A DNA stretch of 63,996 nucleotides, filler included, from Reclinomonas americana ATCC 50394 (taxonomy: Eukaryota): the NCBI GenBank assembly GCA_048213135.1. It is 5 parts of 5 records of this genome, joined end to end, with 100 filler letters (N's around TTAATTAATTAA, not from the genome) between each part and the next. Parts side by side here need not be neighbours in the genome. Positions count along the whole stretch, not along the records: positions 1 to 15,767 come from PS015383.1; positions 15,868 to 39,034 come from PS015384.1; positions 39,135 to 55,734 come from PS015385.1; positions 55,835 to 62,382 come from PS015387.1; 1 more part is not named here. The stretch is one strand, 5' to 3'. The position numbers and the translations under genes are program-made. Within the stretch, counting starts at the first letter, position 1. Each line of letters begins with the position of its first letter. The notes beneath the pieces are model-generated. The model worked only from the letters and a program-made list of their open reading frames with translations. It made no database searches and had not been told where the DNA came from. Shown here one piece after another: positions 2,396 to 60,400 of this stretch.

Positions 2396-3672
2396 ATGGG
2401 AACGATGCGACTGGCCCACTGTTGCGTCGCCCGGCGATCGACACCACCAGCGCATCGTCGCATGCTCACCAAGTACGCACACAGTGTCAGACATTCACGT
2501 GCTGCCGTCGTCGGCCGGCCTCTTTTCACACGCACTCTTGTCACCGAAACGCATGCTCGGCGCGCTCAACATCAAATGGCGTCGCGGTCGCAACGCATAC
2601 CCGCCCGCGCTGGTCACTCGCAGCCTCGACGATGCAAAGCAGCAAGTGTGTGCGCGTGTGAGAGTAAGAGATCATCATCTTTTGTCGTCGTCGTCGTCTC
2701 ACGTGGTGGCGCTTGTCATTCAGGGCGCGAATCACTTTTTCGTCACTGGTGACCTCACCAACTTGGCCACCGAGGACGAGTTCGCGTACGCTCGCCATCT
2801 CCTGGCGGCCGGTGCGCGGATTTCGAGACAACTCGCCCTGTGTGTGTGCTCACTTTCCTTTTTTGATGCAGACGCCTCGGTGTGGCAACACTCGACGGTG
2901 ATACCCGGCAACCACGACATCTACACGTACGGATGCCCGCTGCACGATCGGTTCGCCCGACACTTTCTGCCGTCGGGCGTGTCGACAGCAGCGGCGTTTC
3001 CGCTGCACAGCACAGTGCAGAGCGGCACGCAACGTGTGCAGATCCTGGCGTTCAACTCGGCCGTCCCCAGACCGCTGTTCATGTCGGGAGGGCGTGTGTC
3101 GGCCGAGCAGTGGGAACGAGCAGAGCAACTGTGGTCACCGCAGGTCGGTCGGATCGAGTCTCCCCTCTCCCTTCCCGCCCCACATGCTGACTGTGCGTCG
3201 CAGAAACCGAGTCCCGACGTGTTCCGTGTGGTGGTACTGCATCATCCACCACTGCCACGGCGAACACCTCGCTCGCAAACCATGCACGGACTGGACGCGG
3301 TCGACATTGAGCGCATGGCGCAGTTCTGCGAGCGGCATCACGTCGATCTGGTGCTGCACGGTCACACGCACACACCGAGTGCCGTTGCGTGCTCCATCCA
3401 CCGTCTTCCCTCTCTCAGTATCGCCCGCACCTCACTCCACTCCTCTCCTTCCCTCTCCCTCCCTCTCGCAGCGCCGACTGGCGAACAGCGCCGGAACGCC
3501 CGTCTACGAGTCCGGCAGCACCACGATGCTGGCCGAGAATCCACTCGTGACGGCACGCTACAACATGTATGAGGTGCGCGACGGCAAGCTGGTACGCGCA
3601 TGGTCGCGAGTCTTCGACACGAAGAGCAACTCGTTCCGCGAGGTCGACCTGCCGGTGCTGCATCCCGAATAG
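2396..3672 (+). CDS. Calcineurin-like metallophosphoesterase (CpdA-like), 6 exons
   Basis: All five motifs appear after splicing: AHLSDIH, TGDLT, PGNHD, LHHP, LHGHTH. Confidence 0.9.
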
Positions 3673-3754
3673 AAGAAACCCCCCCCCCGAATAATGATGA
3701 TGCTGCTGTTAACATTATAGTGCTGCCTAGAATTGCATTTGTTGTCTACACACG

Positions 3755-6010
3755 TCAGTCGCCGACCTCTGACGCTATTACCGTGTTGAGCAGTGTGGTG
3801 CGTCGATCGACCTTGCTGATGTCCAAGTGCACCGCACCGCCGCCATTGTGGCTGTGGAGCGAGCGCAGCGTGAGTCAATGACCCCCACGGCGACATAATG
3901 CACAGCAGACAACGCAACTGATCGCGTACAATCGCACAGAGAGTGCGCAAAGAACTCGGCAGAATCGTTCCCGCCACAAAGACACCATGCACCGTGCGAC
4001 CACCTTGCTGAAAATCGCGAAACTCCAGCTGCAACATTTCAGGTACCATAAGTCGGCGCAACAAGACTCGAAGCTGCAGTCACACGCGCGCACCCGTAAT
4101 GACTGCAGTGTGCCATTCACGAACGCAGACGGACTCAGCAGTTGCGGCACGTCGGCAGTGAACCGTCGGCACTCATTCAGCAACACATCAAACACCTGTC
4201 GCACACTCTTGCCTCGCGCCACCACATGCACACAGTTCGCCCTGTGTGAAGCACGCGCGTGGGCGACAATCAACGAGCATCGTCTGGTGATTCTGAACAG
4301 AGAACGCAACTTGGCGGCGCCTGGTCGCACACCCGGCGTGAGGTCAAGTGGTCTCAGCTCCACATCCAATCCTGCAACACCGCCGAGCGTCAGCAACGTG
4401 TGCGGGAAAGGTGCAGTGCAGCTCGAGCCAACCTTCTCGATCGAGCACGTTGCGCACATAGGGCGGGACCGGAGTCCACACAGCCAGAGGTCGATTGCCG
4501 GCACCGCGACCAAAGAAGGCACACTCTGTCGGCCACAACACATAAAAGTATTCACACAATCCGTTCTGATAGGAGGACCACAACGAAGTCATGGCCTGCT
4601 CCCTGGAGGTGACGACGATAGTAGGACGGTGAGATACACAAGCGGGTGGCAGCCATGCATCAACGCACGCAAACCATTCGCGTATTCTCGACGTCAGGAA
4701 CGCCGAGTCGTCGGCCGACAGGCTGCTCAGCACAGGCGACAGCGTGTCGAGTGTTTCCGTGTCCACGGCCGAACTGCACGCAGCACTCACGAGAATGAAC
4801 AAACACACGACTGTGGTGCAGATGGTGAAGACCCACGAGTGGATTATCGCACCTTCGTTCCTGCGCGACCTTGAGGTGCGCAGCGGTACTGGCTGGCACG
4901 GCTGACGAAGGATGCGCAAAATACAACAGGCCCTGGCACAGTGAGCGCGTCTCGCCAAACACCTCATCCTGTGCACTCTCATGTCAATGGACGGCTTGCT
5001 TCACGATACACGGAGAGACACGCGAATGACGCACCTCGGCGGCGTGCACGCCCAGACACTTGAGCAACGCCGACGTGTGCTCCGTGGATCGCGTCTGCTG
5101 GCACCACGCAAACGGCGACGACGAAGTGAAAGCCATTTCCGTGCGCAGAATCCAGTCACGCGGCACATTGTCGGCACGCTACGCACCACAGCAACGAGCA
5201 GCGCATGTCAGACGGGGAGAAAAACGAACACAACACTGAAAACTGATGAGCACCTCGGTCGGTGGCGCGGCCGCAGCAACGCGCAGAGTCAACAGCTTCA
5301 CCATCGACCCCGTTGTCGTTGTAGTGGTGGCGGTCGTCGTTGTCGCAGCCGCCGCCGCAGCAGCAGCAGCCGCAGCAGCTGCCGATCCAACTTGCACCTT
5401 GCGAGACGCCGCCGCACTCCGCGCAATCACCTCGTCCACCCATTCTTGCTCCGAGGCAGTCGCCGGTGCAGCACCAACCGCACCCGCAATCATCTCGTGG
5501 AACCCATTCTGCAGCCCCGCTCCCAGCGCCGCGTGTCGCGACACGTCCTCCTGCATCTCCATTGTCAACAACACCGCGAGACACACACACACACAGACAC
5601 ACACAGACCTCCCAACTCGTCAGTCGTCGCACACCGTTGGCCGCTGCAGTGGTCGTGGTGGCACCTCTCAACTGGCGATCACTATCATCGTCGTCATCTT
5701 CATCATCATCATCGGCTTCACCATCATCATCGCGATCGTCGCCTTCATCGTCGACATGAGGAGTTCGCTGCCGCGACCGGGATGCTCGCGTTGAAGGCGC
5801 TGGCGGTGACTTGCTGGTGGGCCGGCGTCGCGCCAGTGGCAGTGGCGATGGCGGTTTTCGTGGAGGTGAGGAACCCGATGCAGCCGCTGTTGTCGTTGTT
5901 GTGCGTGTGGCTGGCGCCTGCAAGAACTTTTTCCGCTTGGTCGCCGGTGCACCGTTGCCGAGTGACCCGTTCAGCCCAGTGACGGACTGGTCCTCGGCGG
6001 CGCGTTTCAT
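3755..6010 (-). CDS. DONSON: DONSON (downstream neighbour of SON) replication factor, multi-exon; 3' end approximate
   Basis: PRDWILRTEMAFTSSSPFAWC, GLCEYFYVLW, VPQLLSPSAFVNGTLQSL and GTILPSSLRTL resemble the conserved DONSON blocks (DWSIKT..FTSSQPF, CPYFYV, PTLLSPVAF). Confidence 0.8.
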
Positions 6011-6072
6011 GCACAAGCAACGTGGACGGTTTGCGATGACAAATGACGTCAATTTCCCGCAATTTTGTATTA

Positions 6073-7690
6073 CTATGTAGGTGCTTGCGAGGTGCACCAC
6101 TGGTAGAGGCGACTGTTGACAGTGTGCAGTCGTTGCACTTCTGCTTCTAGCTCGGCTAATCTGGCGGCAAGCGCGGCGGCATCCGACGATGAGGACGATC
6201 CGGCGGCTTCGTCGGCATCGCCGGCCGGTCGCGCCACGCGATCGTGCAGGAACCGGTGATCGTCGAAATGGAAGGCTGCGTCGTCGCGCGAGGGCGAATC
6301 GTCAATGTCCATGCCACACGGTGGCAGAGTGGTGTCTGCGCAGGATGCGTAAGCATGCAGGGAAACGAGGGGATTTTCGTCGTTGTTACAGACCGTCGTT
6401 CATGACCGCCGGCAACTTGCGCAGCGGCACCACTGGATGTGGTGGCGCGGCCGAGAACTCCTTCGTGTCGGCCACTGTGACAATGGTGACTCCCATCACC
6501 GGCGAGCCACGGTGCTTCTCGAACGAGCGAACCGTCTGACCGCTCATGGTGTCCCACACTCGGAGGGTGCCGTCGAGCGAGCTTGACACCAGCGTCCCAT
6601 CGTGTGCCGTGCACAGGCCCGTGACGGAAGACCTGCGTAAACGCTGTGAGTGTGCTGACGAAAATGGGGAGCTCGTGGGGCGCCACCGCAACTTGTGACC
6701 GACAAGAGTGCGTGAGGCGGCGCTCGACGAGGTGGCGAGGAACGCCGAAGCAGCATTCGGTGCCACGGGAAACAGTTCGAACGCAAAGATGCGCCCATCG
6801 TCGGCTCCCACATAGCAGGTGGAAGCGAGGGTGTCGGTGGTCACCGAACGCAGCGCCGACGGGAACGCCATGGACCACACTGACTGGCCGGTGAGCAGAT
6901 CCCACATCTTGCACGTGCGATCCGACGACACCGACAGCAGCAGCGGCGCCATGCCGAGCGCAGTGGAGCACACAATGTCGGTGACGGCCAGCGTGTGCTC
7001 GGCCAGCGTCAGTCGCGGCATCGCCTCGCCCTGCGACAGCACCTCGGCGAGATCCCACACACGCACCAGTGAATCCTCCGAGGCCGAGATCAGCAGTGCA
7101 CCGTCGGCGCTAAAGCACAGCGCACTGACGCTCTTGTAGTGCGCCTCCCAACTGCGACACATGTGACCGGTGCGGATCTACAGAGAGCAGTGAGCGCGTG
7201 GATCAATGGCACACGTACACACGCATGCATGCAGACCTCCCACACATGCAACGATCCACCAACGCCACCGCCGACCACATACAGCCCGTCTGGCGACATG
7301 GCAACACTCGACAGTCGCTCCGGAGTTCCACATCGATACAGCGGCTGGTCCTGCACGACGCGGGAGTCAGCACAACGCCACACAGCACTGACATGGACAG
7401 ACAGCGAAGAGACAAAGAACCTTGGTGGCGGTATACATACTGACACTCGATCGCCCACTGTGCGCCGACACGACAACTGGTCCACCGCCATGCGGACTGC
7501 ACACGAGCGCCACACCATGCGCCGGTGCGCCACTGCCACCAGCGTCGCCCACGCGCCACGCTCGCATCACCGATCCCGTCGACAAGTCGTGCGCATACGC
7601 CACCACCGAAGCCGACGACGATGACGACGAGGCATCATCGCCACCACCGGTGGCCAGTGATGTCCACGAAATCACAACGCTGGTGCTCAT
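6073..7690 (-). CDS. WDR18: WD40 protein WDR18/Ipi3 (Rix1 complex)
   Basis: SPDGLYVVGGGVGGSLHVWE..TGHMCRSWEAHYKSVSALCFSADGALLISASEDSLVRVWDL, plus C-terminal coiled coil LAELEAEVQRLHTVNSRLY. Confidence 0.85.
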
Positions 7691-8189: not shown

Positions 8190-11100
8190 ATGGGTGATCT
8201 GCAGTGGCAACGCATTCCGCATGGTAACGGGCCTCCACCGCGCTTCGGATCGTGCATCGTGCCCTTTGCAGGCTACCTCGATCAGTACTTGGTGTTTGGT
8301 GGCACCAACCAGAGTGTCTTCTTCAACGACATTTACACGTTTTCCACGAGTTGCGTGCGTGTCTGTGCGTGTCTGCGTGTGTCCGGCAACTCACGCTGCC
8401 TCACCGCAGGCACTGTGGAGTGGTACCGACGAGAGGGATGGGGCACTGTGCCACCGTCGATGTTTGCCTTCTCGACCTTTGTGCATGGCAATCATCTGTA
8501 CGTGTTTGGAGGCTACGGTGGCGCCTGCACCAGCGAACTGTACTCGCTGAGTTTTGGTGCGTCGCGTCACTCTCTCTCTCCCTCGTTCTCTCCTTCTCTC
8601 ATGCGCTCACTCATGCGTGTGTGTGCATGTAGACACCTTCGAGTGGGAGAACGTGATGACGACGGGCGATCGACCGCCTCCTCGATATCTGCACACCACC
8701 ACACGAGTCGGCGGTCTGGTGGTTCTGTACGGTGGCCAGGTCAGCGACGGCTCAGTCACCGACGACATGTACGTGCTGAGCCTCGTCTCCATGCGATGGG
8801 AGCGAGTGGTGTTTGCGCCGGGCGAGATGAAGCCGGTGGCTCGGTGTGCGCACTCGATGACGGCGTGGGATGGCTCCTGCGTACTCTACGGCGGCCGCTC
8901 CAAGAGCGAGCCCATGAATGATCTGTGGAGTTTTGACATTGGTGTGTGTGTGCGTGTGCGTGTGTGTGTACTCGCTGGTGGAGCTGGCGCTCGCTCACTC
9001 TTGCGCTTGTGTGCGATGCCCCAGAGAAACGCATGTGGACGCAGATCATTTCCGACGTCGCCACACCACCTTCGGTGTGCGAGCACTCGTGTGTGATGCT
9101 GCCGGACTTCCGCCTGTGTGTGTATGGTGGCAACAACGGGCGCACGCGAAGCGATCTGGTCTGCTTGTTCACACCGCGCTTCTCCGACTCGCGGACGCTG
9201 GTCACGGGTGTCGACATTCACGTTTTTGAGCCGCCGATCTTGAACCGGGAGACGGTTCGGTTTCTCCCATCTCCCTCCCCCCTCAGACCTCCGGCTCTCC
9301 TCCCTCACCACTCACTTCTCTGCAGTGCGGCTGGCCCACACGGCGGTCATTGCATGCGGCTGTTTCCGTGGCCAACAATGCACTCGGTCTGCGCACGGAG
9401 CGCGGTCTGCAGACTCACATGTTGATGTGGGGCGGTTTCGATGGTCGCCATGTTTTCGGCGATATGTACACTCTTTACGTGCCGCCCCGCGCCAACAATG
9501 CCATGTCGCTCACTGGCCTCAAGGCGCCCGTCGATGCGCCAGGTATGTACACGAGTGGCACCAGGGTGTCTGTCTGCCGTTGGGAGTTGTGAAGCCTGAC
9601 GCAATCACACTCTGTTGTGCTGGACAGACGAGATGTTGATTCTGGCCTTGCGTGACGGCTCCACTATTGAGGTGTCGCGGCCGCTGCTTGAGGCACACTC
9701 GACGTACTTCCGCACACTGACCACCGCCTCGCGCACTGTCATCATGTCGTCGGTGCCGAATGAGGCCGTGGAGCAGATGGTGGCGTTTTTGCAGGGTGGT
9801 ACGCTCACGGTGAGTGACATACAGACGCTGTGGTTTCGTCGACACATTCCTTTCTTGCTATTCAACTCACTCACTGTGGCGGTCTGCAGATCAAGACGTT
9901 CCGAGAGGGTGCTCAGCTGGTCGAATTGGCCGTGCGCTTCCGCCTTCCGGCGCTTCTGGAGCAGATCAAGCGCATTTTCAAGCAGCGCCAGCAGCCACAA
10001 GACCCGCCGTCACGTCGACGTGGTTTGTTTGCATCATTCCTGTTTTCGTGCTCCTGTTTGTTTTGCTGATCACTGGTGGCGAGCAGTTATTGGCGACGTG
10101 CCACTGCAGCCCGACGGCTACGAATACCTGATCAACATCAGTACTGTGACGGACTTGCTGGAGATGTGCGACGAGTTCAAGGCCGAGTTGCCGGATCTGC
10201 GCGACACCGTGGTGCACTTTATGGTGCGCAACTACCCAGAGGTGTCGGTCACCTCGCATTTCAAGATGCTACCGCGCCCACTCCGCGAAGAGGTCTGTCG
10301 GTGTTGTCTTTTGTTTGCGTCACCTTTTGCTCACCTGCGCTCGGCATAATAACAGATCCGCAATCGGTATCAAGCCCTGCTGTACTCGTCACCACTAGAG
10401 GAGCTTGACGATCCGACGCGGGCACTCGTGCTTGGCGTACACGACGCCACGCTTGCGGCGGTGTACGGCCGGCAGTCCACTCCGCAGGCGCAAGACCGCG
10501 AGTACGAAGAGTCGCCTGGCGAAATGTCGGCCGCATTCAGCATGCAAGGCCTGAGCCGCAGTGACTTCGACGACACTCCACAACCGCATTCGTCAATCAC
10601 AGCCAGGGCTCCGATTCTGCGCGACTCGCCGCCACCGGTCAAGCGCTCCATCTTTGATGGCCTCCCGTCGGGCACGTCACACCTCAAGTCCGCCACGCTC
10701 TTCCCCTCCACCGCCACCGCCACGCTGAGCAGCTTGCCGGCCGCCGTGCCCGTGGCTCAGCAGCTCATGCAACAGCAGCAAGGGTCGTTGTCTCAGGCGC
10801 CACCATCGATGCCGTCGGTGCGGTCGGCGTCTGTGCCTCGCTCACAGTCCTCGCCGGCACCGGCCATGCCGCCGCAGTCGATTTTCGATCGCGCAACGCC
10901 AGCGTCAGGAGTGTGGTCGTCGTCGACCAGCAGCACGGCAGCCACGCCACAAAGTATGTTGCCGTCGGCGTCGTCAACGCCGGTGCCGCCGTTTGAGTCG
11001 CGACGCACGGAGCAGTCGATTGCGGAGCGTCTGGAGGCAGAGAATGCGCTACTGCAGCAGCGCTCGATGGAGCAGCAGATGCGGCAGCAGCAGTACGCTG

Positions 11101-14100
11101 AGCCACGTATGGACGGACGCACACTGACACCGTTGGAGAGGCTAGAGCAGGATTACCGAGCGCGCCAGGGTGGAGGGCCACCACAGCAACAACAACAACA
11201 ACAACAACAGCCGCCACCACTGATCCAGTCGGCCGCCGACTTGGCCCTGGCACACACCGCAAACCCGGGCTCGTCGGCAGTTGACCAATTTGAGCGAGAC
11301 TTCCGTGAGCGACAGATGCAACAGACGGCGGCCATGCGATCGTTGCAGGACCAAACACTGCTGGGACCGCAGGCGCGGCGTACGGTGTCGCTCGAGGAGG
11401 AGTTTGAGGAGCGGCAACGCGAACTGCAGAGGCAGTCGGCCGCAGCCGGTCGACCAGCGGCCCCACTTGAGCAGCTGGAGGCGGAGTTGGCGATGAAACG
11501 CAAGCGCGACGAACCCCACCACGGGTACATTCCGCCGGTGCAACCGCCCTACGAGCAGATGACGCAGCTGCCGCGACCGGCGTTGCCGCTGGAGACGGAG
11601 CACGAGTTGCAGAGGACGCGAGCGCAGCAGCAGCAGCAAATGTCGGGTGCGCGATCGTCGCCAGAGCCACGGCACCAAGCCGATCCGTCCTCCGCCTTGG
11701 CTGTTCTGGAGCAGCGCTATGTGATGCAGCAGGCGGAGCAGCAAGCGGAGCGGAATCGCCAATTTGACGCACAGTACCAGCCGGCGACACAGGCAATGCC
11801 ACCACTGGGCCAGCTGGGACAGATGTCAGAGGGACCATCCAGGTCTGCTGGATCACCGCTGGAGCGCCTGGAGCAGGAGTACTTGCAGCGACACCCGCCG
11901 CAGTCGATCTTTGACCGACCGGGTGTGCCTGGAGCGCCGCCACCGGCCAGCGCCGCCACTTCGTCTGCGTTGGAACAGCTGGAGCGCGAGCGCAAGGATC
12001 GTCTGGATAAGATTGCTGCCGAAGCCGCGCAGCGCCAGAAGCAGCACGTTGCCGCGCAGCAGCCGTCGTCGTTTGACGGCAGCACGCCGGCACTGCAGCG
12101 GTTAGAGTCCGAGTATCGTCAGCGTCAAGTGGGGGAGCAAGCGGCGCAACAACAGCAACAGCAAGCACCAGGCGCAGGCCCTCGTCGTGCCAGTGCCGCC
12201 GAGGAGGAACTGCGACAGCAGGTATCGCAACTGCAGTACGATATGGCGCAATTGCGCAATCAGCAACAGACACGTGCTGCCTCCAGCGCGGCCCTGGGCG
12301 CTGCAATGGGAGCAGCCATGGCCAGCGGCTCTGTGCTTCCCGATGACAGCATTCCGCACAGCCGCAACTTCCCGACTCCACTGCTGCCTCAAGGCCAGTA
12401 CGCCAATTCTCCCATTGCACTCCCGCGCTCTGCCAGCGGTTCGGAGAGGTCACTGAGTGGTGAGTGGCGGAAGCCTGCATTTCTTTTTTTTGTTTCTTCC
12501 TCTCACCATGCCCAACAAAACATAGGTCGTGTCAAGCGTGAAGGCTCTGTGGCTCCGCGAATGCAGTCAGATGAGTGGACCTACGGAGGCATGCCACCGA
12601 GAGGTGACGAGCCGCCGTACAGCGGCGCGCGGGCGCCGTCGGATGTGGCCTCCGAGTCGTCCGAGTACGCTGAACCGCTGCAGTACATGTACGCGGAGAG
12701 TGGTGTGGGCGCGTCGGGTGGTCCACCGGGATCCACACCGCTGCCGCAGATTGCGCCGCCAGCTCGCATCATTCCCATGCCCGCGTCGTCTGCTAGCGAG
12801 GCATTCCTCACGACCGAGGATGCTCTCGGGCCGCGATCTTATCTGCCCGGCGATGAGCTCCGACAGCGTTCGCCCGTGTCGGTGGGACCACCGCCTGCCA
12901 CCCAACTGATGCCTGTGCCCACTGTGCCGTTGCGTCGCTAAGCAGCAAACGTGGAGAATTTTGTTGGTGCTCACTATGTTTGGATGCTGATCAGTGCCTA
13001 CGAGCCACCCATGGAGGTGCAGGACACGCATCGGCGTCCACTGCTGCGCAGTGGGTCTCCGTCTCTGGCCTCCCATCGCTCCATGAGTGCCATGGTACGC
13101 GCGCATGTGTATGTGTGCTGTCAATCGTCTTCTTTGATTGCTTACCGTGGTTGGTTTGTGCAGCCCACCAGTGGCACCGATCTCGACGATCTGGCGGATC
13201 TACCGCCGGGCGGCTCATTCGGTCGTCGTGTGGAGGATCTGTTGAGAAGACATCCACTTGACGAAGACCCGCTGTCCGATGTTTCTGGGATTGCGCCAAC
13301 ATACCCACAAAAGTGCGTTCAGTAGGCCTGCATCAGTGCTTTGCGGCGAGGCGTAACTGACCATGCGGGTATCGTGCAGAGTGGATCCCCGACAGAAGCA
13401 CGAGGCCATGGCGGCCGACATTGATATTGTGCGCTCCGAATTGTACGCTGCCATCAAGCAACTGCACGATGTGAGTGATGTGTGGTGGTGCCAGGACTTT
13501 AGGGATGCACGATACTCATCTTCGGATTATTTGCTGTGCAGTCGGAGGAGGCTGATCAGTTGGCAGAGACGGCAGCGGCACTCAACATGACGATGCGCCA
13601 GAAGCACTTGCTGAAGCCACAATTGCCGGCCACACCACCACCACGGTTAGCCAAACCACCGCGACCCGTCAACGCAGCTCCCGCACGTCGTTCCTCTGCA
13701 GCAACTGTCACACCAGAAAAGTACGTGTGCCATGTGAGCCTTTCGTGCACAGCGAGAGAGAGAAAGAGAGTAACCAACGACGCGCTGACAGGGAGTCGGA
13801 CGTTCCAATTTTGCACTCGTCAATGGAGGAAGGTCGCCGGCTGGCGCTGAAGCGTGAACGAGTCACATTCATGCGCACCATCAACGAGGAGAAGGTGTGT
13901 ATGAGTGCGCGCAGCACTGTACGTCGTGTCAGTTGTCGCTCACTGCATGGCACAGGCGGCATGGGTGGACGAAAATCACATTTTGCGCACACTGGTGAGC
14001 CTCCATCGAGCACACGGACCGGAGTCGTTTGAGTTCTTGGGGTGCGTCGCTCAATTCCCAATCTGTTGTAATCGCTCTCCGAACCACGCTCACGAGGACG

Positions 14101-26978: not shown

Positions 26979-27961
26979 ATGTCTGCTCACCCGAAGATCT
27001 TCTACTGGTAAGTGCGCTCTCTGTGTGTTGCCATGCATTGATGATTGCGTTGCTCACGTCCGTTTTTCTACACAAAACAGGGGCATCAAGGCGTTGCGTC
27101 ACTTGTCTTGCTGACGTGTGCACTCTCTCCTCGCTCTCTCCTCACGCTTGCACATGCACAACAGTCGCGCTCAGCTCCCCATCCTCATCCTCGCCGCTGG
27201 CGGTATCGAGTACGAGTGGTGCGTGGAGATCTGCAGCTTTTGTTTTCTTTGTGTTCCGGCACGCATGCTCACTCACTGTCCATTCGTGTGCAGGGACCAG
27301 TCTGGTGGCAACTGGCCGGAGCTGAAGCCGCAGACGTTGCGTCTGCAGCTGCTGCAGCTGCTTGCTCTCTCATCCACCTGCATGTCTCACTCACTCTCCG
27401 TTTTCTGCGACAACAACAGTCACTTTGGACAGCTGCCGTACTTGGAGCACGGCAGCATCCGCGTGTCGCAGTCGATGGTTTGCGTGTGTGTGCCTCACTC
27501 GCATCCACGTCACCGTCGTGACTCATTCCCCATATGTGCGTGTGCAGGCCATTGCCCGCTACTGCGCTCGCCTGGCGGGCCTGGAGGGTGGCAGCGACTC
27601 TGACTTTGCGACGTCGGAGATGCTGATTGAGGAGCAGAACGACTTCTACAACAAGCTGGCCGGCGCCATGTACGCGCCCGAGGCCACCAAGGCCGAGGCA
27701 TGGGCCAAGTTCCTCGACGAGTGGGTCCCGGCTCAGCTGGCCAGCCTCGAGAAGATGCTGCCGGAGGGCCAAGACTGGTTCGGCTCGCGCCTGACCGCTG
27801 GCGACCTCGCCATCTTCAACGCCTTCAACCTGACCCTCGACATCAAGGGCGACATCCTCGACCACTCGCCCAAGCTCAAGGCTCACTACGAGCGCGTGCG
27901 CGCCCTGCCCCAGCTGCAGGCCTACTTCGACATGGGTGTGCAGCCGTACTTCCACAAGTAA
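26979..27961 (+). CDS. Glutathione S-transferase (Tyr-type, sigma/pi-like), 6 exons
   Basis: MSAHPKIFYWGIKARAQLP..THFGQLPYLE..VSQSMAIARY..LTAGDLAIF. Confidence 0.93.
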
Positions 27962-46348: not shown

Positions 46349-46955
46349 CGTGTGTGTCATTGCTCACGTTGTGTTCACTGTGCAGGGTCAGACTGTGTCG
46401 ATTCATTACACTGCCATGGTATGTCTCTCGTTCTCTCTCTCCTCTCCCTGTGTGTGTGTTGTTGTTGTTGTTTGTGACGTTTTCGTGTGTGTGCTTCTTG
46501 CGCCAGTTCTCCGATGGCACACAATGGGATTCGACGCACGAGCGAGGGCGGCCGTTCAAGTTCCGACTTGGCATTGGAGAAGTGATCTCAGGTGCGTTCT
46601 CTCTCGTCTCTATCTCTGTTTGTTTTGTGTCTCACTTGCGTTTCTCATTGTGCGTGCGCCACGTGTGTAGGTCTCGACGAGGGCGTTGCACAGGTCTTGC
46701 TGACACGATGTTCGATATCTCCTTGTTCTCTGTTTCTCACACCAGCAGCTCTCTGTCACACACAGCTCACTCTCGGCGACCGCGCCAAGGTCAAGATGAC
46801 GGCCGATCGTGCGTTTGGCAAGCAGGGACTGTCCAAGCTGTTGCGTCGCGCAGAGAGCCTCCGTCGTTTTGGCGGTGTCTGATGAGCTGTTGTTGAGCAG
46901 GGTGCCTCCGGACTCCCCGGTGGTGTTCGACGTTGAGCTGCTCAGCTTCCAGTAA
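46183..46955 (+). CDS. FKBP12-type peptidyl-prolyl isomerase, 6 exons
   Basis: MGIAIEIIKSG..GQTVSIHYT..DGTQWDST.ERGRPFKFRLGIGEVISGLDEGVAQL..VPPDSPVVFDVELL. Confidence 0.93.
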
Positions 46956-48602: not shown

Positions 48603-51582
48603 ATGCTGTTGCGCGGTCGCCTGCTGGTGGCCGCTGCCTGTGCACTGCTGCTGCTGCTTGTGTCGGCGTCGACGATGCAGGTGGCGTGGGGAGAGTTGAG
48701 GCCGGAAGACCCGTCGCGAGTTGCGTCTTTTACACACACACATGAAGGCACGCGCACATTGGCACGCGCACTCTCTCTCTCTCTCTCTGTGTCTCCGTAA
48801 TCCATTGCGCACACGAGCAAGCGAGCGAGGGAGAGGGTGTGTGTCTTGCTTGGCACGCGCACATGGCGTCATTGCCGACCACAAATTCGTTCAACTCTCC
48901 TCTTTGCTCACGTTCCTCTCTTTGTACTGTGCAGCATCGCGATGCTCACTCTGTGTCGTTCCCGGTGCGCATTGGCGCCGATGGACGCATGGACCACTGG
49001 TCGCACGGAGGATCCACTGTCATCACCGACTCGTTCATCCGCGTGACTCCGGCGCTGCCGAGTTCGCACGGCTCACTGTGGAACATGGAGGTACGGTCCC
49101 ATTATTGAAAATGCATCTCTCTCTCTTGTGATCGATGTCGTCGTGATGTGATTGACACGTGTGATTTCATCTGCAGCCGGTTGCGGCATCGGCGTGGGAA
49201 ATCACCTTCCACTTCCGCATTCATGGACCCAAGTCGCCGGGCGCCGATGGCATGGCACTGTGGTACATTTCGCATCCGGCGCCCGCGGGTCCGGCATACG
49301 GCGCGTCGCCCAAGTTCAAGGGTCTCGGCATTGTTTTTGATACGTTTGACAATGACGGCATGCGCGACAATCCCAAGATCCAGGCCGTCTACAGCGAGGA
49401 CGCGCGTATTCCGTACGATATGAGTGAGGATGGCTCGCGTGTGGAGATCGGCTCGTGTGTGGCGTACTATCGCAACTTGCCGCACCCGGCCGTCATCAAG
49501 GTCCGCTACGAGCAGCGCACCTTGTCGGTGCACTTTAACCTGCGCAAGGGCGTCGGCACCTTTGTCGAGTGCTTCACCGTGCCCAACGTCAACCTGCCCC
49601 AGTACTACTACTTGGGCGTCACAGGCGCCACTGGCAGTCTGTCTGGTGTGTGTGTGTCGGTTGAGTGGCAATGATTCTCGCGTGACTGCCCTCACTCACG
49701 GTTGCGCAGATTACCACGAGGTCCACGGCCTGTCGTTTGTCGATCTCTCGCCGGTGAGTCGGTGATGGTGGTGATGGCGATTGTTGCCACGCATGGTCTT
49801 ACCTCTCCCTCCCTCCCTCCCTCTCCCTTGTTGTACCGCAGGGCGCTGGCTCGTCGGACCCCGAGAACGCACCGGCGGCGGCGACTTCGGCGATTCCGCC
49901 TGGAGCCACGACTAACGCCGCGTCGGCCACCAGTTGTGTACCTTTGCATTGTTGGTCTTCTTCTTCTTCGTCTTCCATGGTTGCTGAACTGCGTTGCTCG
50001 TGGTGCAGCTGAGGAGCCGGCTCCTTCGGCCTCGTTCGACAACCCCGAGTTTTTGAAGGTATGTACTGATTCAATTCACCGTCCCACGATCGATACTCAC
50101 GCTGTCGCGGTCATGTTTATATGTGTTAGGCCTTCCGCCGCAAGCTGAAGGCCATGCGTGACGCGGAGCGCGCTGCGGCGGCGAACGGCGGTGATCCGTC
50201 TCGTGCCGACGACCCTGCACGCCAGCACTACAATCAGTACAAGCATCAGGAGTCGGGAGATTCCGTGCCGAGTTCTGTGCAATCCGACGACGCGAGCAGC
50301 GACAACAATGACAACAACAACAACAACAAGAGCAATCCACCACCGCCGACTCCGCGTACCGAGTACAGCCCGCCTCCGTCGGCTCGTCAGCTCAACAGCG
50401 AGCCGTCCATGAGTTGCGTTGTTGATGTCTTCTCTGCTCTTCCTTGTTTTGCCCTTCTCGCTCACCGAGACGGCTGGCGTGCAGGCATTGCCGAGTCGGA
50501 GCTCAAGTCCGAAGTCAAGCAGCTGATGACCAGTGGTCATGAGAGGATTATCGGCGAAATCAGCAAGATGACCACTGGTGTCGCCGATCGCTGGAACTCG
50601 CAGGAGGCCAAGGTGCGTGTGTGCGTGTGCACGTGTGTGCTCCTTTCGCTCATGCCACTCATCCTCCCACTCTCTTTGTGAACGCCTGCAGCTCGACAGC
50701 ATCCACAACCTGGCTGTGGCCGTGGAGAAGATTGTGACTCACATTCCCAACGAGGACGCGTTGCGCGCGGTGCGTGTCGTCTACTGCGCGTCCCTCGCAC
50801 AGGATGTGTGTGTGCTGATACTTTGATTGTGCTGCAGGCCCTGGCTGTGGCACTTGCCGAGGCCAAGATCTCTGCGGCTCCTGCCAGCAGCAGCGATAAC
50901 AAGGGTGATGCCGCGGTGGAGAATGCGACTGTCATGTTGCGTTTTGATGGCAGTGGAATGGATGGTGATTGCACGAATCTCCACGTCGCTCACATCGGTG
51001 CAGTACCGCCATGTTGCAAGGAATCATGCACACGCTGGAGGCACACACCAAGGGATTCGGTGATCGCATGCTGACGGTGGAGACCAAGATGTCGGATGTG
51101 CTGTCGCACGCCGAGCGCGACGAGAACTCGCGCTCCACCGCTCTCGGCTACCTCACCAACATTGATCGCGGCGTCAAGGATGTCATCCCGTCGGTGGTGC
51201 AGCAGTGGGGCTCCACCAACAACGAAATCATCCAGAACCTGCGCAAGGAGCTCAACGCTGTGCGCAACTCTGTGACCGCCATTGAGGAGCACATTACCGG
51301 TTTCCGCCAGGTGGCCGAGTCGCTGCCGCAACAGGTGCGCGCGGCACTGGCCGGCGCCCCCGCTCCCACGGCGTCGTATGGCGAAGGTGGGGATTTCAGC
51401 GGCGGCAACGGTGGCGCCTCATGGTGGGTGATTGCCATTATGCTGTTTGCCAACACGTGCATTCTGGTGAGCTTTTGTGCCCTCTTCCATGGCTTGCATG
51501 ACGAGTTGTTGGTTCTCACACACACACACAGCTACTGTACTTCAAGATCAAGGAAAGAAAGGAGCACAGCAAGTACCTGTAA
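48603..51582 (+). CDS. L-type lectin cargo receptor ERGIC-53/Emp47-like
   Basis: Signal peptide, FIRVTP..GSLWN, GADGMALWY, FKGLGIVFDTFDND, YYLGVTGATGSLSDYHEV, coiled coil, TM helix and KERKEHSKYL tail. Confidence 0.88.
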
Positions 51583-51861: not shown

Positions 51862-54800
51862 TCTCTCTCTTTACCGCCCACAGCAGCCACACCCACGCTG
51901 GAGTCCTTTACCCCCATCCTCGCATCTCCGTTCACCAATGTCGGTTCGTCAGCATCACATCGCTCCCACATCACATCGCTCTCACTTGTCACGCAGACAT
52001 CACCATCACCGGCAGCGGCCTCGCCTCCGGAAACACTGTGACACTGTGTGCGGACTCTGCATGCAGCGGCACAGCGGCGTTCACAGGCTCGAATCCGCGC
52101 ATCAACTGGTACGAGGGAGCGTCCACGACTCTCATCGTCACCATCTCCAACATCACCACGGGTCAGTGGTACGTGTGTGTCGACACTGGCTCGGTGCAAG
52201 TCGTGCCCAACTTTACACAACTCATCGGTTCTGTCGTGCTGCTCACCCACACGCCCCTCATCCGCGCTCACTTTTCGCGCATGCAGTGCCGTGGGCCTCC
52301 AGCTATTCTTCGACGGTCGTGGCCAGTGACGCACCAGCTGCAACGATTGTCATCTCGGGATCGCTGCTGTCGGCCACGGATCAAGTGTCCTTCCAGCTGC
52401 CGGGTTCCCAATGCGACGGCTCAGGCACGTACACGAATGCAGTCGGAGTGCAGTTCGTGGACGACACGGGGTCATCGCTGACGGTCAACATTGGTGGCTC
52501 GTTGCGTTGCATACGCTCTCTCGCTCTCTCTCTCTCTTTCTCGTTCTCATCTGTCCTCTCACCCGCGTCGTGCTGCAGCGGTCTGGCGCCCTCTGGCAGC
52601 AACAAGTATCATGTGTGCATTGCGTATCGTGGTGGCCAGGTGCAGCGGGCGCGAGTGGGTGCCGCGCTGATTGTGCAGGCGCCATTGGCATTCAGCTTTC
52701 AGCCGGCATTCATCCCACAGCTAGACATTGCGGCGGCACTGACGTTGCGTCACACGACGTGGTAAACTCCAGTTGCCGTGCCAAGTGGATAACATCACTT
52801 TGTGTGTGTGTGCGCGCAGACTGGTCGGCTTTGGACTGTCGGTGACCGATGTGGTGGTGCTGCAGAGTGGTGGCTCGTCGTGTGCTGCGGCTGACGGGCA
52901 GCTGTACACGCTAACAGGCTCTGCGTCGTTGCCGGCAGTGGTGAGTGCTCACTACAAACGTGCGTGCGCGCATCCTCTGACTGTGTATTGGACAGGCATC
53001 TGGAGTCTCGCCCGGTGTGCAAGTGGTCAAGTTGACGGGTATTGCCATGACTCCCGGCACCTACAATGTGTGCTACAAGCAAAACGGTGGCAGTTCACTC
53101 AGCAGCGTGACGGGCACGCTCACAGTTGGTGCGAGCATGGTGTATTTTTTCCTGCTTGGTGTCCGAGCTCGCACTGACCACCACCCTTGTAACTATCCCG
53201 CGACAGTCGGTTTCGTGTCATATTCGCCGACCAGTGTCAGTGACACGGCCTCGTCCTCTCTCGTCATTGCCGGCTCCGATCTCTCCATGAGCGACACCGT
53301 GGCACTGGCCCAGTTGGGCTGCTACCAAGTATCGGGTGGCACGGTGTTGACGTCGATGTCGTCGGACGGTTCATCGCTGACAGTCGCTGTACCGGCGGCT
53401 GCCGTGACACCTGGTGTGTGTCCCCACACATACCATATTTCTCCGCCTCTGTGTCTGACTTTCTGCGTGCCGCACAGGCCCGTATTCGGTGTGCGTTCAG
53501 GTTCGAGGCACTGGCAATTGGATCATTGTGGGAAACTCGTCGACTGCGCCAGTGGATCTGACGTACGGTGGGTGTGGCGTGTAAGTGTTGTTTGTTCGCC
53601 AACCGTTCTAATGCGTGCGACAGGGTTCTCCTTCAAGCCGCTGTATCTGCCAGCGTCGGATACCTCGCAGAAAATCACAATCACTGGCGTCAGCGATGGC
53701 ACGAGCGTGAGCCTCGTCTCAGGTGTGGTGAGTTCGTGCTCCGGTGGCTTCTCGGTAGCCAGCGTCTCGGCAGGGCAGGTGGCCATGAGTCCGTCGGTGG
53801 CCTCGGGAGTGTACTCGGTGTGCCCGAGTGGATGGTCGACTCCGGCGTACACTAGCCTTGTCCTCGGTACGATGTATATCGAGTCCGCTGCCTGCGTGAA
53901 ACAACGTCGATTCACACGCATTCTGCCCTTTTTCGACAACGCAGGCAACTGTGGCAAGTACAATGTCAACTCGCGACCGCAGTTCTTCACGGCGCCGCTC
54001 CAGCAGAGCTTTCTCTTTGGCGCTCAGATGGCTGGCAAGTGCGCCAGCGATTCCACCACGGACAGCGTCGGATGCATGTGGTATGCGACGAAAACAACAA
54101 CGAGCCAGTCGCCCAGTTGTCCATCTGACTTATTTCGTGCAGGTGCAGTTTTCCGGGTCTGGCGCTGGGTGACATCTCCGCGGCTGGTGTCGCCACCCGT
54201 GGCATGTGTGTGAACCGCACTTCCGGTGGCTGCACCAATGTCGGCTCGCGCACCGAGACGCACAAAAACAGTGTGTCGATGAAGCTAGTGCAGGTTCGGT
54301 GTCGATCGCCAGCAATAGTGGTGTCGTATCGTGTTGCTGACACACACACACACGATGATGTAGAACCCCGCGGCCTATCTTCCCGAGTTCGACAAGTCCG
54401 CTGAAAATGGACAGAACGTGGCCGAGGAGGTCGACTATTTCGCGCTGGCATTTTACTCCGTCACTCCACCGCACCGGTACGTCGCCCTCATTTGTGTGCG
54501 ATTGTGTATGTCATGTCACTCACAGTTGGTTTCTGCTCGCAGCAATTTCAGTTTGCGAGTGGTGGCAACCTCAGCAGACTACGGCACTATTGGTGACAAC
54601 TTGCACCTGTTTGTGTCGCGTAGCAGCATGCCAACTAGCTCCACGTACGACTTTTCGTCGATTCGCGAGGAGAATCCGTGGTCGATTGACATTCTGGCGG
54701 AGGATGTTGCGTGACACCTGCATCTCTCTCCACACCGCTATCGTGTTGTTCATCTTTACAGCGCATGCACAGCTTGTCACACTGTTTGGTTCATGCAGTG

Positions 54801-55734
54801 GTGCCACTTGTGTGTACAACGTGGCCGTGCAGGGAGCCAACGAAGGTCGCTCGGACAGCTCGCAATACCAGTTGCAAGTGTGGCTTGGTGCGTGTGTCGC
54901 TGTTGTTCTTCTCCCTGCCTTGCACTCACATATTGTTGTTCTTGCGTGCAGAGGTATTGCTTGTGTGTGCGCGCGCGCTGTGTGCAGCAAAGGCGCATTC
55001 ATCTCACTCCTGTACCGCGCAGACCAACTTCACTTCATTCCAGTGCTCAGACGCCTCCGGCAACTGTTTCTCGCTGTACGGACGAGACGGGCAGACGAAT
55101 GTGACAGCGCTGAATGGACAGACCAACGTGCGCTTGCTTCATTCACCGGCAACCAATGCCGGCACGTACACGCGTCAAGTAACGGTTCGTCGCCCGTCGT
55201 CTGCGTCGTCAAGCATGCAACGCAGTGTGTGACCATCTTTGTCGTTCTTGGTGCCATTGCAGTTTGTACAAGACGCAACGTCAGCATATGTGGCGCGCCT
55301 CACGCAGTCGTATTCCACTCTGCAAGTCCGCGACTCTGATCGCTATTTGCGAAGCAGTCTGTGGATCACCGATCCGGTGTACATGATCGACGGGTTCGAG
55401 GTGCGATTCCAGTTCCGCGTCAGCGCGCTGGGAGTTGCGTTCTCCCCACTTTGTCACGCTTTGTCAGCGGCTGGTCACATCTCACATTATGCATGCACGT
55501 CACGCAGTTGTGCAACTCGTTGGACGGTTTCTGTGGCGGTGGTGATGGCTTTGCTCTGGTGTTCAGCAAGGTGGGCGACACATACCTGTTCACCGCTGAC
55601 ACACACGTCTCTCTCACGGTTCTCTGTTCACAGAACTTGACATCTCCGTCGGTAGGTTCACGCGACAACGTCGGCAAAGGTCTCGGTTATGAGGGCTACA
55701 CAGACGCACTGGCCGTCGAGTTCGACATGTGGTA
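51678..55734 (+). CDS. Large secreted/surface protein with Ig-like repeats and a legume-type lectin domain (3' truncated)
   Basis: Signal-like N-terminus; repeats ending G-x-Y-x-V-C; GFEVRFQF..GGDGFALVF..GLGYEG..ALAVEFDMW. Confidence 0.72.
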
Positions 55735-55834
55735 NNNNNNNNNNNNNNNNNNNNNNNNNNNNNNNNNNNNNNNNNNNNTTAATTAATTAANNNNNNNNNN
55801 NNNNNNNNNNNNNNNNNNNNNNNNNNNNNNNNNN

Positions 55835-57330
55835 TCTCCACAAACCTGGTCGGGAGTGTTCTCCGGTCCCGGCTGCACACACGCACGCATACTCGAGTTA
55901 GAAAAAGAACTGCATACAGTTTCCCAAGGAACCTCCTTCTCCCCCTCACCTGCAGCATACGCAGCAGCGGCTCGACCAAATGCTGATTGATGTGAATCAT
56001 GACGAAATCGGCCACAGCCAGCACCTCCTCGGCCGGCCCCAGCGAGTCCCATTCCACCTGAATCCACATGTTGGGAGAATCAAACGCTTCTGCCAACTTG
56101 CGCGCATACTTGTCGAGCTCTGCATTGCAGCTCTCGCGCAGCACCGACTCGCGAGCGAGTTCCTGCACACAACGTCAGTGGCTTTGAGAGGCACGACAGG
56201 TGTGCAGCCATGCAGACAGACCTTGGCCAGATTCAGCACATCCATCCACTGCTTGCGGGTCTCCTCGGAATTGGCGTGCAGGAAGTAGGTGCGTTTGCGC
56301 GCCTCGATCGACCACGAGAACGGCTTGCCTGCACGCACGGTCGAGGAGTGTGAGTGCTGACAGCAGACTGCCTCTCGCTAACACACAGACACACGCGAAC
56401 CAGTCTCCGCCTTGTCGACCGCCGTAATCGCCGAGTCAGCTCCCAACTCCATCACACCCTTCAGCTTGATCATGCCCTGCACACGATCACCATGAGCACC
56501 CAGCTCGGAGACAAAGAACGTCTCATCAACAGTGCTTGATCATGTGAAGGACTGCTCTCTCTCTCTCACACACACATACACACATACACACTGTCTCTCT
56601 CTTTCTCTCTCTTTCTCTTCTACTCTCCCCTCTCTTTCGCCACTCAACATCCGGCTTGGACGAGTAGTACGACAGCTGCAATCCGCGCAACACAAAGTAC
56701 CGCTTCTTCCAGCTGCGATGACGACCTGATCGGAGAATAGTCAGTCAGTCAAAAAAAAAAAGCCTCATCTCCGAACATCGATGGCGTGCTTGACTGCACA
56801 CACACACACCTCCGCGCTTTGACAGGAATCCCTCATAGAGCACATCAGCACCACCGCCTCCCTGCAACAAACAAAACACGCACACACACACGCAATGAGA
56901 AAGGCAAACACAAAAGTGTGTGCGTGTGACATTGCGATGCTTCACCTGCAGACCGGCCGACTGCAGCGAGAAGTTGCCACTTCCACTGCCGCCTCCGCCA
57001 CTGGAGCCACCAGCGCCGACGAGCACCGAGGAGGCCGACGAGGACAAGGACGAGGAAGGGGAGGAGGAGGCGGAGGAGCCGAGTCCTGCAGTGGACACTC
57101 GCCGATCGCCGTACGCGATGCCTGGCGGTGAATCAAGTGCGACCGTGCTGATCAACACGCAAACGCAAACGAGGAGTGGCACAGTGAGTGTGAGCGATCA
57201 AGAAGTGACTGAGCATGAGGAAAATGCAAACAAGTGAAAAAAGAAAGGAGAGGGAAGAGAAGAAAGGCAGAGAACGTGGAAGGGATGGAGAAGAAAAAGG
57301 AAGGAGCTCACCGACGACTCATGATGACAC
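55835..57330 (-). CDS. PH-domain protein (3' truncated; start uncertain)
   Basis: YEGFLSKRG..SWKKRYFVL..LSYY..KLKGVMEL..RTYFLHANSEETRKQWMDVL. Confidence 0.85.
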
Positions 57331-57477
57331 TGAACGATGTCGTCCTTTGATCGTCCCACAAATTTCTGTCCGTTTGAGCAGCTCTCGCCGCGCCCGATCA
57401 TTCGCTTGCTCTCAACCGAGCTTATTCGTCACACACACACACACACACACTCTGTCGCACACACACGTCATTGTTAG

Positions 57478-60400
57478 ATGCTATCCAGTGAGCTGCGCCA
57501 GCGACTGCGCAGTCGGGTGCTTCCGTCGCAGGTGCTGCGATCGCTGAGCAGCGATGAGGATGATGAGAGTGGGAGCGATCCACCACCGCCATCGCACCTG
57601 CTAGCGTCGCCACACGAAGAGATGGATGATCTGATCGCTGAGGCCGAGGCCGAGGTGCGTCGTGCCGAGCAGCACTGGACAGAAGAGGAAGAGGAGGAGG
57701 CGATCATCATGGCGTCGTCGTCGCCATCGGTGTTTCCATCGAATGTGGTGTTGCACGTGGCCGATGCGCGACCGCTCGAGTCCTTCCCGGCGGCGCAGCA
57801 GGCGCAGCGATGGCGGGAACGCACGCGATCGCGATCGCAGTCGCCTGTTCCGTTGCCGCAATCGGTCGGCAGCACCGTGTCGCCGCCTCGTCGACTGACG
57901 CGACCACCGACGCCACCGTCGCAACAACAGAAGCAGCAGCAGCAGCAGCAGCAGCAACAGCACCAGGGAACATCGTCATTGTCGTCCATGTCGGGGCCGA
58001 TCGCGTCGGGTGGTGGCGTTGTCGCCGGCAGTGGCCCTCCGTCGTCGGTCTCGTCCGTGTCATCGTCGACGGCATCGAGTCCCCGTCGAGTCGTCGCGTC
58101 GCAGCAACAGCAACAGCAACAGCAGCAGCAGCATTCACCACGGCGACAGCGACGTGCCGTGTCGCCATCGCCACCGACACTCACACCGCGATCGTCGGGA
58201 TCGCGTCACAGCAATGGGCGCATTGGTCAGCTGATGGCTCGATCGCCGTCGCCGTCGTCCATGCCCTCCAGTCACGATCGGTGGCACAGTGGTGGTCTGT
58301 TGCATTCGCAGGACGGCTACTCGGCGTCGACCGCCGGCAGTGTCGCCATTGGCAAGGCACTGAATTCGACGGAGCGGTTGCTGGAGACGGCCAGGTTTGT
58401 ATTGTCGAGATCCAGCGCTGGCAAGTGCTTCTTTCATTGTCGCTGACTGCTTCCACTGCGCAGGTTCCATTTGGAGGCCTACACGCGGTATGTGTTGCGC
58501 ACGGTCGCCAACGAACCGTATCCCTCGGAGAAGCACTTTGCCACGGTGCACGCGTTGTGTCTCATTCTCGACATTGAGTTCCCGATCAACAACTGGCCTG
58601 GTGAGCCGTGCAGTTTGTCGGCCAGTCTTGCCTCTATGCACTGGGGGACTGACGTGTGCGTGCCTGTGACAGCGTGTCGGGAAATCTTGTTGGATCCTTA
58701 CCTGCGTGATCGACTGGAGATGGCCCGTCCCGACGACTGGTCGTTGAGTCGTGTTGGCAAGTTTTCCGCGCTGCGGACACGAATGCTCTACTGGATGAGT
58801 GATGTTTCTGTTGCGTTTGGATGTGGTGCTGTCGCTGTCAGTGCGCCACACGTCGCTGACGAGCACCCGCAGCTGGATCACACCTTTCATCGCATGTTCC
58901 ACTATCTAGTCACGTTTGGCGATGCACTCGAATACTATGCCAACTTCGCGTGAGTTTCATCCCTTGCTGCCTCCCAGCCTACCAGTGCACTGACTCGACA
59001 GCGCAGAAAACGAGCCACATCGTCCAAGGAGCTGAGTCGGTCGTGGAGTCCACATCCATCACGCGGTTCATCGCCGCTACACATCTTGGCGACGGCCGGA
59101 CGACCAAGTGGCTCACCGACACCACCATCGCCAGCAGGGCCGACGGCGCTGCCCGACGGCGATACGCTGGACCTGTCCAGCTCCGACGACGAGCACGACA
59201 GACAGCCGCTGTCCTCCAAGCCCGCAGCACGGCGGCGGAAACTTCAACAGCAACAGCAGCAGCAGCAACAGCAAGAGCAGTCGTTCTCGTCCAAATCCAC
59301 ACCACGCAGCTCGGCATCGGGAGTGTCGAGCCCGCGCATAATTACTGCCTCCTCTATCACGAGTGCCACTGGAGCGGCGCTGTCACCGCCCACGCCATCC
59401 GCAGCTGCTGCGTCGTCGTCACCGCGCGGTTCTCGGCCACCGCTGGCATTCAGTCCGCGTGACTCGAAGCGACCACCAAGTCCGGCGATGCGCAACTCTC
59501 CGCGTCACACACCGACCTCCAGCGTGAGCTCCAGCGGCACGATGAGTCCGCGGCACATTGTTCATCCGCGGCACAATGGTGGCGGCCAGTCGAGTGCGCT
59601 GGACAGCTCACCGCGCCACACTCCACGCTCGTCGGCCAGTCCCACTGTGAGTTTTGTCAGTGTCAATAGCCAGTCGCCACGCCAGTCGGCTACCCACAGC
59701 CCGAGGAGGAGTTCAGTACCAAACACGGCAGCAACCGGCACCCCTGCCGGTAGCAGCACCGGTTCGCTGACGCCACGTGCTCAGTCGCAACACACGCATC
59801 ATGGGCGCGCTCAGAATCGCCCGTCACCTTCCTCCACACCGCGGTCTCCCGGCACCGGCAGCAGTGCCTCGTCTCCCGATTCGGGTCCACCGGTATGTGT
59901 GCATGTGTCTGTGTGTGCCTTGTTGCGCCTTCTGACTCGCCTCTCTCTCTCTCTCTCTCGCTCTCTTCGACGCAGCTCATGCGACTGCCCGCCGCCTCCG
60001 GAGTGCAAGCCAGTCGATCCGATGTGTCACTCATCAGCTCCTTGGCGCCCTCCGACCGCTCAATGTACAGCGAAGTGCCGTCGGCACACGGCGCCGTCGC
60101 CGGCTCGTTGACCACGATGGAGACCGAGGCGGCTGTCACACTGCCGGAGAAGCCCGGGCGGTTACACGGCGGCCGCGACGAAGAGGACGATGTGGACCTT
60201 ATGCGCGCGCTGGTGGGCTCCTACCAAGCCGCAATCAGTGCCTGCGAAGCGCAAGCCATACCACCAGCGGCTGCCACACAACTACCGTTTGCTCAGTACT
60301 CTGTTGCGTCGACTCTGTGCTCGCGAGTGAGTGCGAGATATACGGACTCAACTTCTGTGCAGATCAAGACGCGCGTGGCACCCGATCGTATCGGTCCACA

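Follow-up and report, generated by a model that had tools for sequence, protein, structure and literature searches.

We analyzed 63,996 nucleotides (nt) of DNA from Reclinomonas americana ATCC 50394 (assembly GCA_048213135.1), five parts joined end to end and here called the window, for their introns and especially for an abundant class of 5′ splice sites (donors) whose conserved motif lies one base further into the intron than usual. Sequence, reading frames and homologues supplied all of the evidence. Genes are densely packed in the window, which is eukaryotic DNA of 56% GC with 2,028 N. A gene finder was run in two passes, one requiring only GT at the donor and using no donor matrix, the other with a two-register donor model. 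Hand curation, in which the final donors were picked by hand, took 199 automatic introns to 192 (about a dozen doubtful ones were removed or merged) in 28 gene models with open frames. Introns are short, with a median of 69 nt. The labels phosphoesterase, WD40, Kelch-BTB, papain, FN3, LisH, L-type lectin, PH, Rogdi and homeodomain are backed by Pfam, some below curated cut-offs; the DONSON-like and FG-nucleoporin-like labels were assigned by eye, and the DONSON-like gene has no Pfam match.

Thirty-nine of the 192 curated introns (20%; 95% interval 15-27%), spread over 17 of the 28 gene models, carry a shifted donor of the form GTT-[G]-[C]-G-T (Table 1); in a subset of conserved genes the share is 12 of 67. 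T occupies +3 in all 39, G +4 in 36, C +5 in 33, G +6 in 39 and T +7 in 36, whereas G at +5 occurs in none; the motif stops at +7, with +8 and +9 close to random. From +4 to +7 the class (G.92, C.85, G 1.0, T.92) mirrors positions +3 to +6 of the 12 standard donors that follow an exon base other than G (G.92, C.58, G 1.0, T 1.0; hereafter standard non-G donors), and its variants GTTGAG, GTTGTG, GTTTCG and GTTCTG parallel the standard donor family, with GTTAAG found in 0 of 192. The original prediction had listed 19 GTTGCG starts and the GTTGAG at 22296, and had proposed that donors with an extra base at +3 are in routine use. All 20 are present on the strand given and all 20 belong to the curated class, which gained 19 further members; the class is confirmed as genuine and exceeds that listing. 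GTTTGCG starts, also put forward as relatives, turned out to be in the standard register: those at 27478 and 4674 have G at both −1 and +5. Three other sites stand outside the class: 52228, G/GTTCTGT, shows the motif after an exon-final G (the slash marks the cut); 46685 was removed, the FKBP reading giving 46694 as the true donor; and 315 was a false call taken out during curation.

Could chance produce such a set, given a GCGT-rich genome, a degenerate GTNNNN donor and some annotation bias? Bare GTTGCG is mildly in excess across the window (83 against 65.9 +/- 7.0 in 100 shuffles, none reaching 83), the final donors were hand-chosen, and 20 of the 39 shifted introns have a standard-looking in-frame GT at most 45 nt upstream or inside the intron, mostly 12-45 nt off. 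The signal, however, resides in position and not in raw count. GTTGCG is the commonest donor hexamer (31, with GTGCGT at 28), against 0.82 expected if positions were independent; 20,000 column shuffles never gave more than 6. An identical 7-mer, GTTGCGT, opens 29 of the 39 introns; in the 51,620 bases of gene models it occurs 33 times in sense and 6 times in antisense, and 29 of those 33 are frame-keeping donors. Nineteen shifted introns lack any standard alternative. The no-matrix pass, which had no donor model to favor them, recovered 32 of the 39 (7 of 12 standard non-G donors; 82 of 141 donors after G), and the share in the conserved-gene subset tells against chance as well. We regard chance as hardly credible, and the merely degenerate donor that the original prediction had itself raised as a counter-explanation fails on these figures.

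Use of the class depends on the last base of the exon. After A, C or T, 39 of 51 donors are shifted; after G, 1 of 141 (Fisher p 7e-29). Donors following G comprise 126 with G at +5, 14 degenerate ones and the one that fits the shifted motif, while those following A, C or T comprise 12 standard GTRNGT and 39 GTT-N-N-G without +5 G. All 51 of the latter have a conserved G, at +5 or +6, whereas 15 of the 141 lack +5 G. T at +3 alone is not diagnostic, since 25 of 29 GTT donors after G retain +5 G. At −1 of the shifted class A is mildly enriched (17 of 39, p 0.03) and would pair with U10 of U1 in a shifted register. The class is enriched in phase 2 introns (18 of 39, compared with 29 of 153 other introns, p 0.001), which would follow if a non-G last base were dictated by the protein and the intron adapted to it. 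Because many intron sequences suffice after G, G/GTTGCGT would be expected only rarely, and its absence would be explicable without active exclusion. Restriction of the class to non-G exon ends argues for a shifted register, with G+1 replacing G−1, rather than a simple bulge; of the earlier picture, the inserted +3 base stands (it is always T) and the simple bulge probably does not.

These introns could instead be cut elsewhere: as GC-AG introns from +4 (GTT/GCGT), at UU donors at +2, or at a GT at +6. In 31 of the 39 a cut at the +4 GC would preserve the frame, 20 of the 39 have a standard-looking in-frame GT close by, and homology decides only five junctions, four of them scored by differences of 4-8 bits. 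All five nevertheless favor GT. With the GT cut, both glutathione S-transferase junctions align without gaps to four homologues, and the score is 259.2 bits; the GC cut gives 252.9 at 27093 and 253.6 at 27336, where an upstream GT gives 232.3. The FKBP junction at 46840 gives 97.3 bits against 93.0 for GC, and the resulting loop has the length seen in three of four bacterial FKBPs, the fourth carrying an insertion. At the WD40 junction 6692 the GT cut scores 29.8 bits, GC 21.6 and a downstream G/GT 19.9, although the profile was built from GH-x3-V repeats and its bit scores favor that spacing; the GT cut restores GH-x3-V, found in 1102 of 1116 repeats, a count that did not impose it. The WD40 homologue search returned generic repeat proteins, which decided 6692 but neither 32734 nor 32499. 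For the phosphoesterase, direct searches gave no homologues and family matches were used instead (7 motif matches from 6 of 9 loci, 3-4 aligning cleanly); its first metal-binding motif agrees with bacterial homologues under the GT cut only. A cut before the first GT is thus favored in these five introns, as originally claimed for the conserved proteins, and we infer GT cleavage in the remaining 34.

The other cuts fare less well across the class. A frame-keeping acceptor is available for the UU cut in 12 of 39 introns and for the +6 GT cut in 9 of 39, mostly GAG or AAG, and six shifted donors have neither GC nor GT at +4. Were GC the cut, GTT would have to close 31 exons spread over all three phases. 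One true GC-AG intron is present (29531-29596, +), but this lone GC donor among the 192 reads AAG/GCATGT, with a typical strong exon side. Cutting at any of these other positions seems improbable.

In everything but the donor, the shifted introns look ordinary. All are GT...AG (of 40 GTT..G introns tallied, 39 end in CAG and one in TAG), and they resemble the other introns in length, branch motif and acceptor; a CURAY-type branch site is found in 31 of 39 and in 114 of 153 others, at a median distance of 19 nt in both. None of the 192 donors begins with the U12-type RTATCC. Ordinary branch sites, acceptors and lengths, together with the lack of U12-like donors, point to the major spliceosome. 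A separate donor at 30118 (+), G/GTTATCCT, resembles the U12 donor GTATCCT plus an extra T; it has a major-type branch site, and the resemblance is probably chance.

Recent, rapid intron gain from a single introner-like mobile element with GTTGCGT ends would account for the shared 7-mer and for the nine shifted donors among the 24 introns of one gene, but not for identity that ends at +7, nor for lengths (median 69), branch motifs and acceptors like those of other introns, nor for variants that mirror standard donors. Such an origin, which we consider very unlikely, would still require a spliceosome able to read the site.

The explanation we favor, with somewhat better than even confidence, is that the shifted introns are GT-AG introns read one base out of register by the U1 small nuclear RNA (snRNA), probably in altered form. 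The recognized word would be G-[G/U]-U-G-C-G-U, within which the two classes are cut one base apart. In the common class its first G would be the last exon base (G/GUGCGU); after an exon-final A, C or T, G+1 of the intron would substitute, and U at +3 would displace GCGU to +4 through +7 (/GUUGCGU). U1 would pair in the +1 register, G+1 with C9 and GCGU with positions 6-3, through an arm carrying G5 and perhaps A8, and U6 would either accommodate a spare base in docking on +6G/+7U or bind weakly. C at +5 of the class (31 of 36, compared with 81 of 405 inside introns) is under selection, which predicts a G in the partner RNA. The computed energies agree: standard U1 gives −1.2 kcal/mol on the shifted class, against −6.9 on G/GT donors with +5 G, and in its two fixed registers on the class only 0.0 and −0.6 kcal/mol. 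When 256 arms were scanned for separating donors from decoy GTs, ACGUACC came out best, with an area under the curve of 0.918 (standard arm 0.826, rank 25), and it pairs with the shifted class in the +1 register only. Because standard U1 barely binds and G at U1 position 5 fits best, the arm is probably altered. Bulging of U+2/U+3 was the lowest-energy duplex for 0 of 39 donors with the standard arm and for 1-2 of 39 with four variant arms (2 of 39 with G5/C8 arms; model energies only). On this modeling a variant U1 better fits the energetics than the bulge-tolerant spliceosome with standard U1 that the original prediction had also offered.

It is also conceivable, though we think it rather unlikely, that U1 is standard and that the class is set later, by the U6 ACAGA box pairing with +6G/+7U while U+2/U+3 loop out in a tolerant active site; that tolerance would stem from changed Prp8, SNRNP27 or PRCC, or from lost U6 methylation. 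Donors with a non-G at −1 are a U6-dependent class in animals and plants (PMC11732430), U6 pairs out of register at STAT3, albeit with the opposite direction of shift (PMC11162779), some lineages combine +4 C with a standard U1 (bioRxiv 10.1101/2022.06.08.495308), and Caenorhabditis elegans PRCC mutants slip one base at GUU introns (PMC8865678). Against this, the standard U1 would bind almost nothing in either fixed register, and shifted donors outnumber standard non-G ones 39:12 although bulging is energetically costly and demands a further fixed base; nor does a standard ACAGA box predict the C. None of 15 box-variant U6 genes from metagenomes lies in GTTGCGT-rich surroundings (0-2 per locus), and a scan of viral contigs for U6 box variants found none. 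Those metagenome U6-like genes, several of which look full-length, carry ACGGAGA, ACTGAGA or ACCGAGA in place of ACAGAGA.

Several points weigh against an altered, out-of-register U1. An Rfam scan of the window returned a single transfer RNA (30962-31034, −) and no snRNA. The computed energies ignore pseudouridine, and the gene models behind the argument are hand-curated. At the WD40 junctions 32734 and 32499, profile comparison did not separate GT from the alternatives, and C at −2 (12 of 39) is not enriched. It has been argued in review that U5 and U6, not U1, set the cut position (PMC11732430). Thecamonas and Mamiellales prefer +4 C and keep a standard U1 (bioRxiv 10.1101/2022.06.08.495308), so preferring C need not entail an altered arm. 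Finally, a single arm with G5 and C8 gives −4.4 kcal/mol on shifted sites and −5.7 on standard non-G sites; because of this weaker binding and the one more fixed base, it leaves the 39:12 excess unexplained unless position 8 has changed too, and an arm so changed serves G/GT donors poorly (−2.7 to −3.5).

That last difficulty keeps alive a reading with two U1 small nuclear ribonucleoproteins, an ordinary or G5 one for G/GTNNG and a dedicated ACGYAAC-type one for /GTTGCGT. Arms of this A8 type reach −8.6 to −10.6 kcal/mol on the shifted class but −2.7 to −5.5 on G/GT donors, so that they would explain the excess and serve the common class poorly. We hold two U1s to be a real though distinctly less probable possibility; if true, a fifth of the introns would follow a genetically separate donor code inside the major spliceosome, and U6 would routinely take a 5′ strand one base longer.

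Table 1. Shifted donors in the window (slash, predicted cut; "no matrix", among the 32 recovered in the pass without a donor matrix; "new", among the 19 missed by the original prediction)
Gene	Intron	Strand	Donor	Remarks
Metallophosphoesterase, intron 1	2421..2484	+	T/GTTGCGT	Homology-decided (first metal-binding motif)
Metallophosphoesterase	3384..3471	+	C/GTTGCGT	Frame only
DONSON-like	3852..3918	-	A/GTTGCGT	
DONSON-like	4242..4310	-	A/GTTGCGT	New; no matrix
WD40	6633..6692	-	A/GTTGCGG	New; homology-decided
Kelch-BTB	8350..8409	+	A/GTTGCGT	
Kelch-BTB	12929..12994	+	C/GTTGCGT	
Unnamed	15131..15209	+	A/GTTGCGT	No other in-frame GT
Membrane protein	16388..16465	-	A/GTTGAGC	+4 neither GC nor GT
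Papain-EGF-FN3	19196..19262	+	C/GTTTCGT	+4 neither GC nor GT
Papain-EGF-FN3	19488..19560	+	T/GTTGCGT	No matrix
Papain-EGF-FN3	20886..20956	+	A/GTTGTGT	GT at +4 not an open-frame alternative
Papain-EGF-FN3	21053..21114	+	A/GTTGCGT	
Papain-EGF-FN3	21431..21496	+	C/GTTGCGT	
Papain-EGF-FN3	22296..22358	+	A/GTTGAGT	No in-frame GT alternative
Papain-EGF-FN3	22568..22645	+	T/GTTTCGT	
Papain-EGF-FN3	23426..23492	+	A/GTTGCGA	
Papain-EGF-FN3	23769..23832	+	C/GTTGCGT	
Unnamed	25864..25937	-	T/GTTGCGT	Weaker gene model
Glutathione S-transferase	27093..27164	+	C/GTTGCGT	Homology-decided
Glutathione S-transferase	27336..27419	+	C/GTTGCGT	Homology-decided
FG-nucleoporin-like	29755..29823	+	C/GTTGCGT	No matrix
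LisH-WD40	32072..32499	-	A/GTTGCGT	428 nt; profile 83.4 vs 83.4 and 83.9 bits for alternatives
LisH-WD40	32674..32734	-	C/GTTGCGT	
FKBP	46840..46900	+	T/GTTGCGT	Homology-decided
L-type lectin	48720..48934	+	A/GTTGCGT	No matrix
L-type lectin	49933..50008	+	A/GTTGTGT	In-frame GT at +4 possible
L-type lectin	50413..50484	+	A/GTTGCGT	
L-type lectin	50936..51003	+	T/GTTGCGT	
Large extracellular protein	52501..52578	+	C/GTTGCGT	
Large extracellular protein	52744..52819	+	C/GTTGCGT	
Large extracellular protein	54706..54772	+	T/GTTGCGT	
Large extracellular protein	55434..55507	+	A/GTTGCGT	
PH-domain	56477..56648	-	T/GTTGAGT	
Unnamed	58810..58872	+	T/GTTGCGT	In-frame GT 6 nt upstream
Unnamed (same gene as 58810..58872)	60303..60362	+	T/GTTGCGT	
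Rogdi-like	61157..61230	-	T/GTTGCGT	
Rogdi-like	61404..61467	-	A/GTTGCGT	No matrix
Rogdi-like	61843..61913	-	A/GTTCTGT	Shifted copy of common GTCTGT; no matrix

Some of the genes in Table 1 have features of their own. The papain-EGF-FN3 gene (18102-23930, +) is predicted to encode a 1,392-residue membrane protein, with shifted donors in 9 of its 24 introns; judged by eye, the residue at the expected catalytic cysteine of its papain-like domain looks altered. The Rogdi-like gene (60925-62373, −) matches Pfam PF10259 below the cut-off and has 3 shifted introns of 7. In the gene for the large extracellular protein there is a possible 11-nt micro-exon (54952-54962, +), flanked by introns of 60-64 nt. 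A few introns are long (300-430 nt; 32072-32499, 36949-37273, 43231-43599 and 40101-40401), mostly pyrimidine-rich low-complexity sequence or repeats. Elsewhere, the 5′ region of a pyruvate kinase gene (38100-38600, −) offers several very short exon candidates and no confident joined model; the best matches of this kinase are to Acrasis and Willaertia (53-55%), with the window sequence unplaced in a tree. Four N gaps (15812, 39079, 55779 and 62427) contain a 12-base TTAA-repeat linker, and artificial joins are possible there.

The spacing from the cut to the +5 G is regarded as fixed in eukaryotes, departures being rare exceptions. A second spacing in a fifth of the introns, set by the last coding base, amounts to a natural experiment: it bears on whether U1, or U5 and U6 with Prp8, fixes the cut, and on how the active site absorbs a spare base. 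The class also predicts a co-evolved snRNA that can be checked, and gene finders with a single donor matrix will mis-call such introns. Our literature search turned up no report of an abundant shifted donor class, with most subscription journals outside its reach.

The nearest known relatives are the human bulged and shifted sites. Bulge +2/+3 and bulge +3 sites number 54 and 36 of 201,541 human donors, and the validated non-canonical registers together make up 1.5% (Tan et al., 2016, PMC4856993), compared with 20% here. Like them, our class retains the GT cut, has G and T at +6 and +7 and lacks +5 G. The human model shifted site has A at −1, a base found in 17 of our 39, and its core, AAGU, fits standard U1, whereas GCGU does not; the human registers were moreover proved with suppressor U1s (PMC4856993), the register here being a proposed one. 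As modeled pairing with standard U1 falls short, we would not file it with the shifted-register sites of Roca and Krainer.

Two protist systems offer parallels for the snRNA. In archamoebae, U1 arms and donors have changed together, ACAAAC with GUUUGU in Entamoeba and a candidate ACGUAC with GUGCGC in Mastigamoeba (Roy and Bowser, bioRxiv 10.1101/2022.06.08.495308). There as here, donors misfit standard U1, and the top arm of our scan is of the Mastigamoeba type, so that a co-evolved U1 is probably a shared feature; their donors, however, form a single class with +5 G, whereas ours occupy two registers chosen by the last exon base. The diplonemid Sulcionema specki has a second U1 gene with a changed 5′ end, that is, two U1 arms in one protist genome, but both pair comparably with the consensus, and no donor class is tied to the variant (PMC12621601).

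The dependence on the exon base recalls the scheme of two 5′ splice-site classes, U5-side AG//GU and U6-side //GURAG (Parker, Fica and Simpson, 2025, PMC11732430), although the words "shifted", "bulge" and "GUU" are absent from that review. As in that scheme, an exon-final G trades off against the intron side, and after a non-G base the intron motif is nearly invariant; unlike it, the intron-side class in R. americana is mostly displaced by one base.

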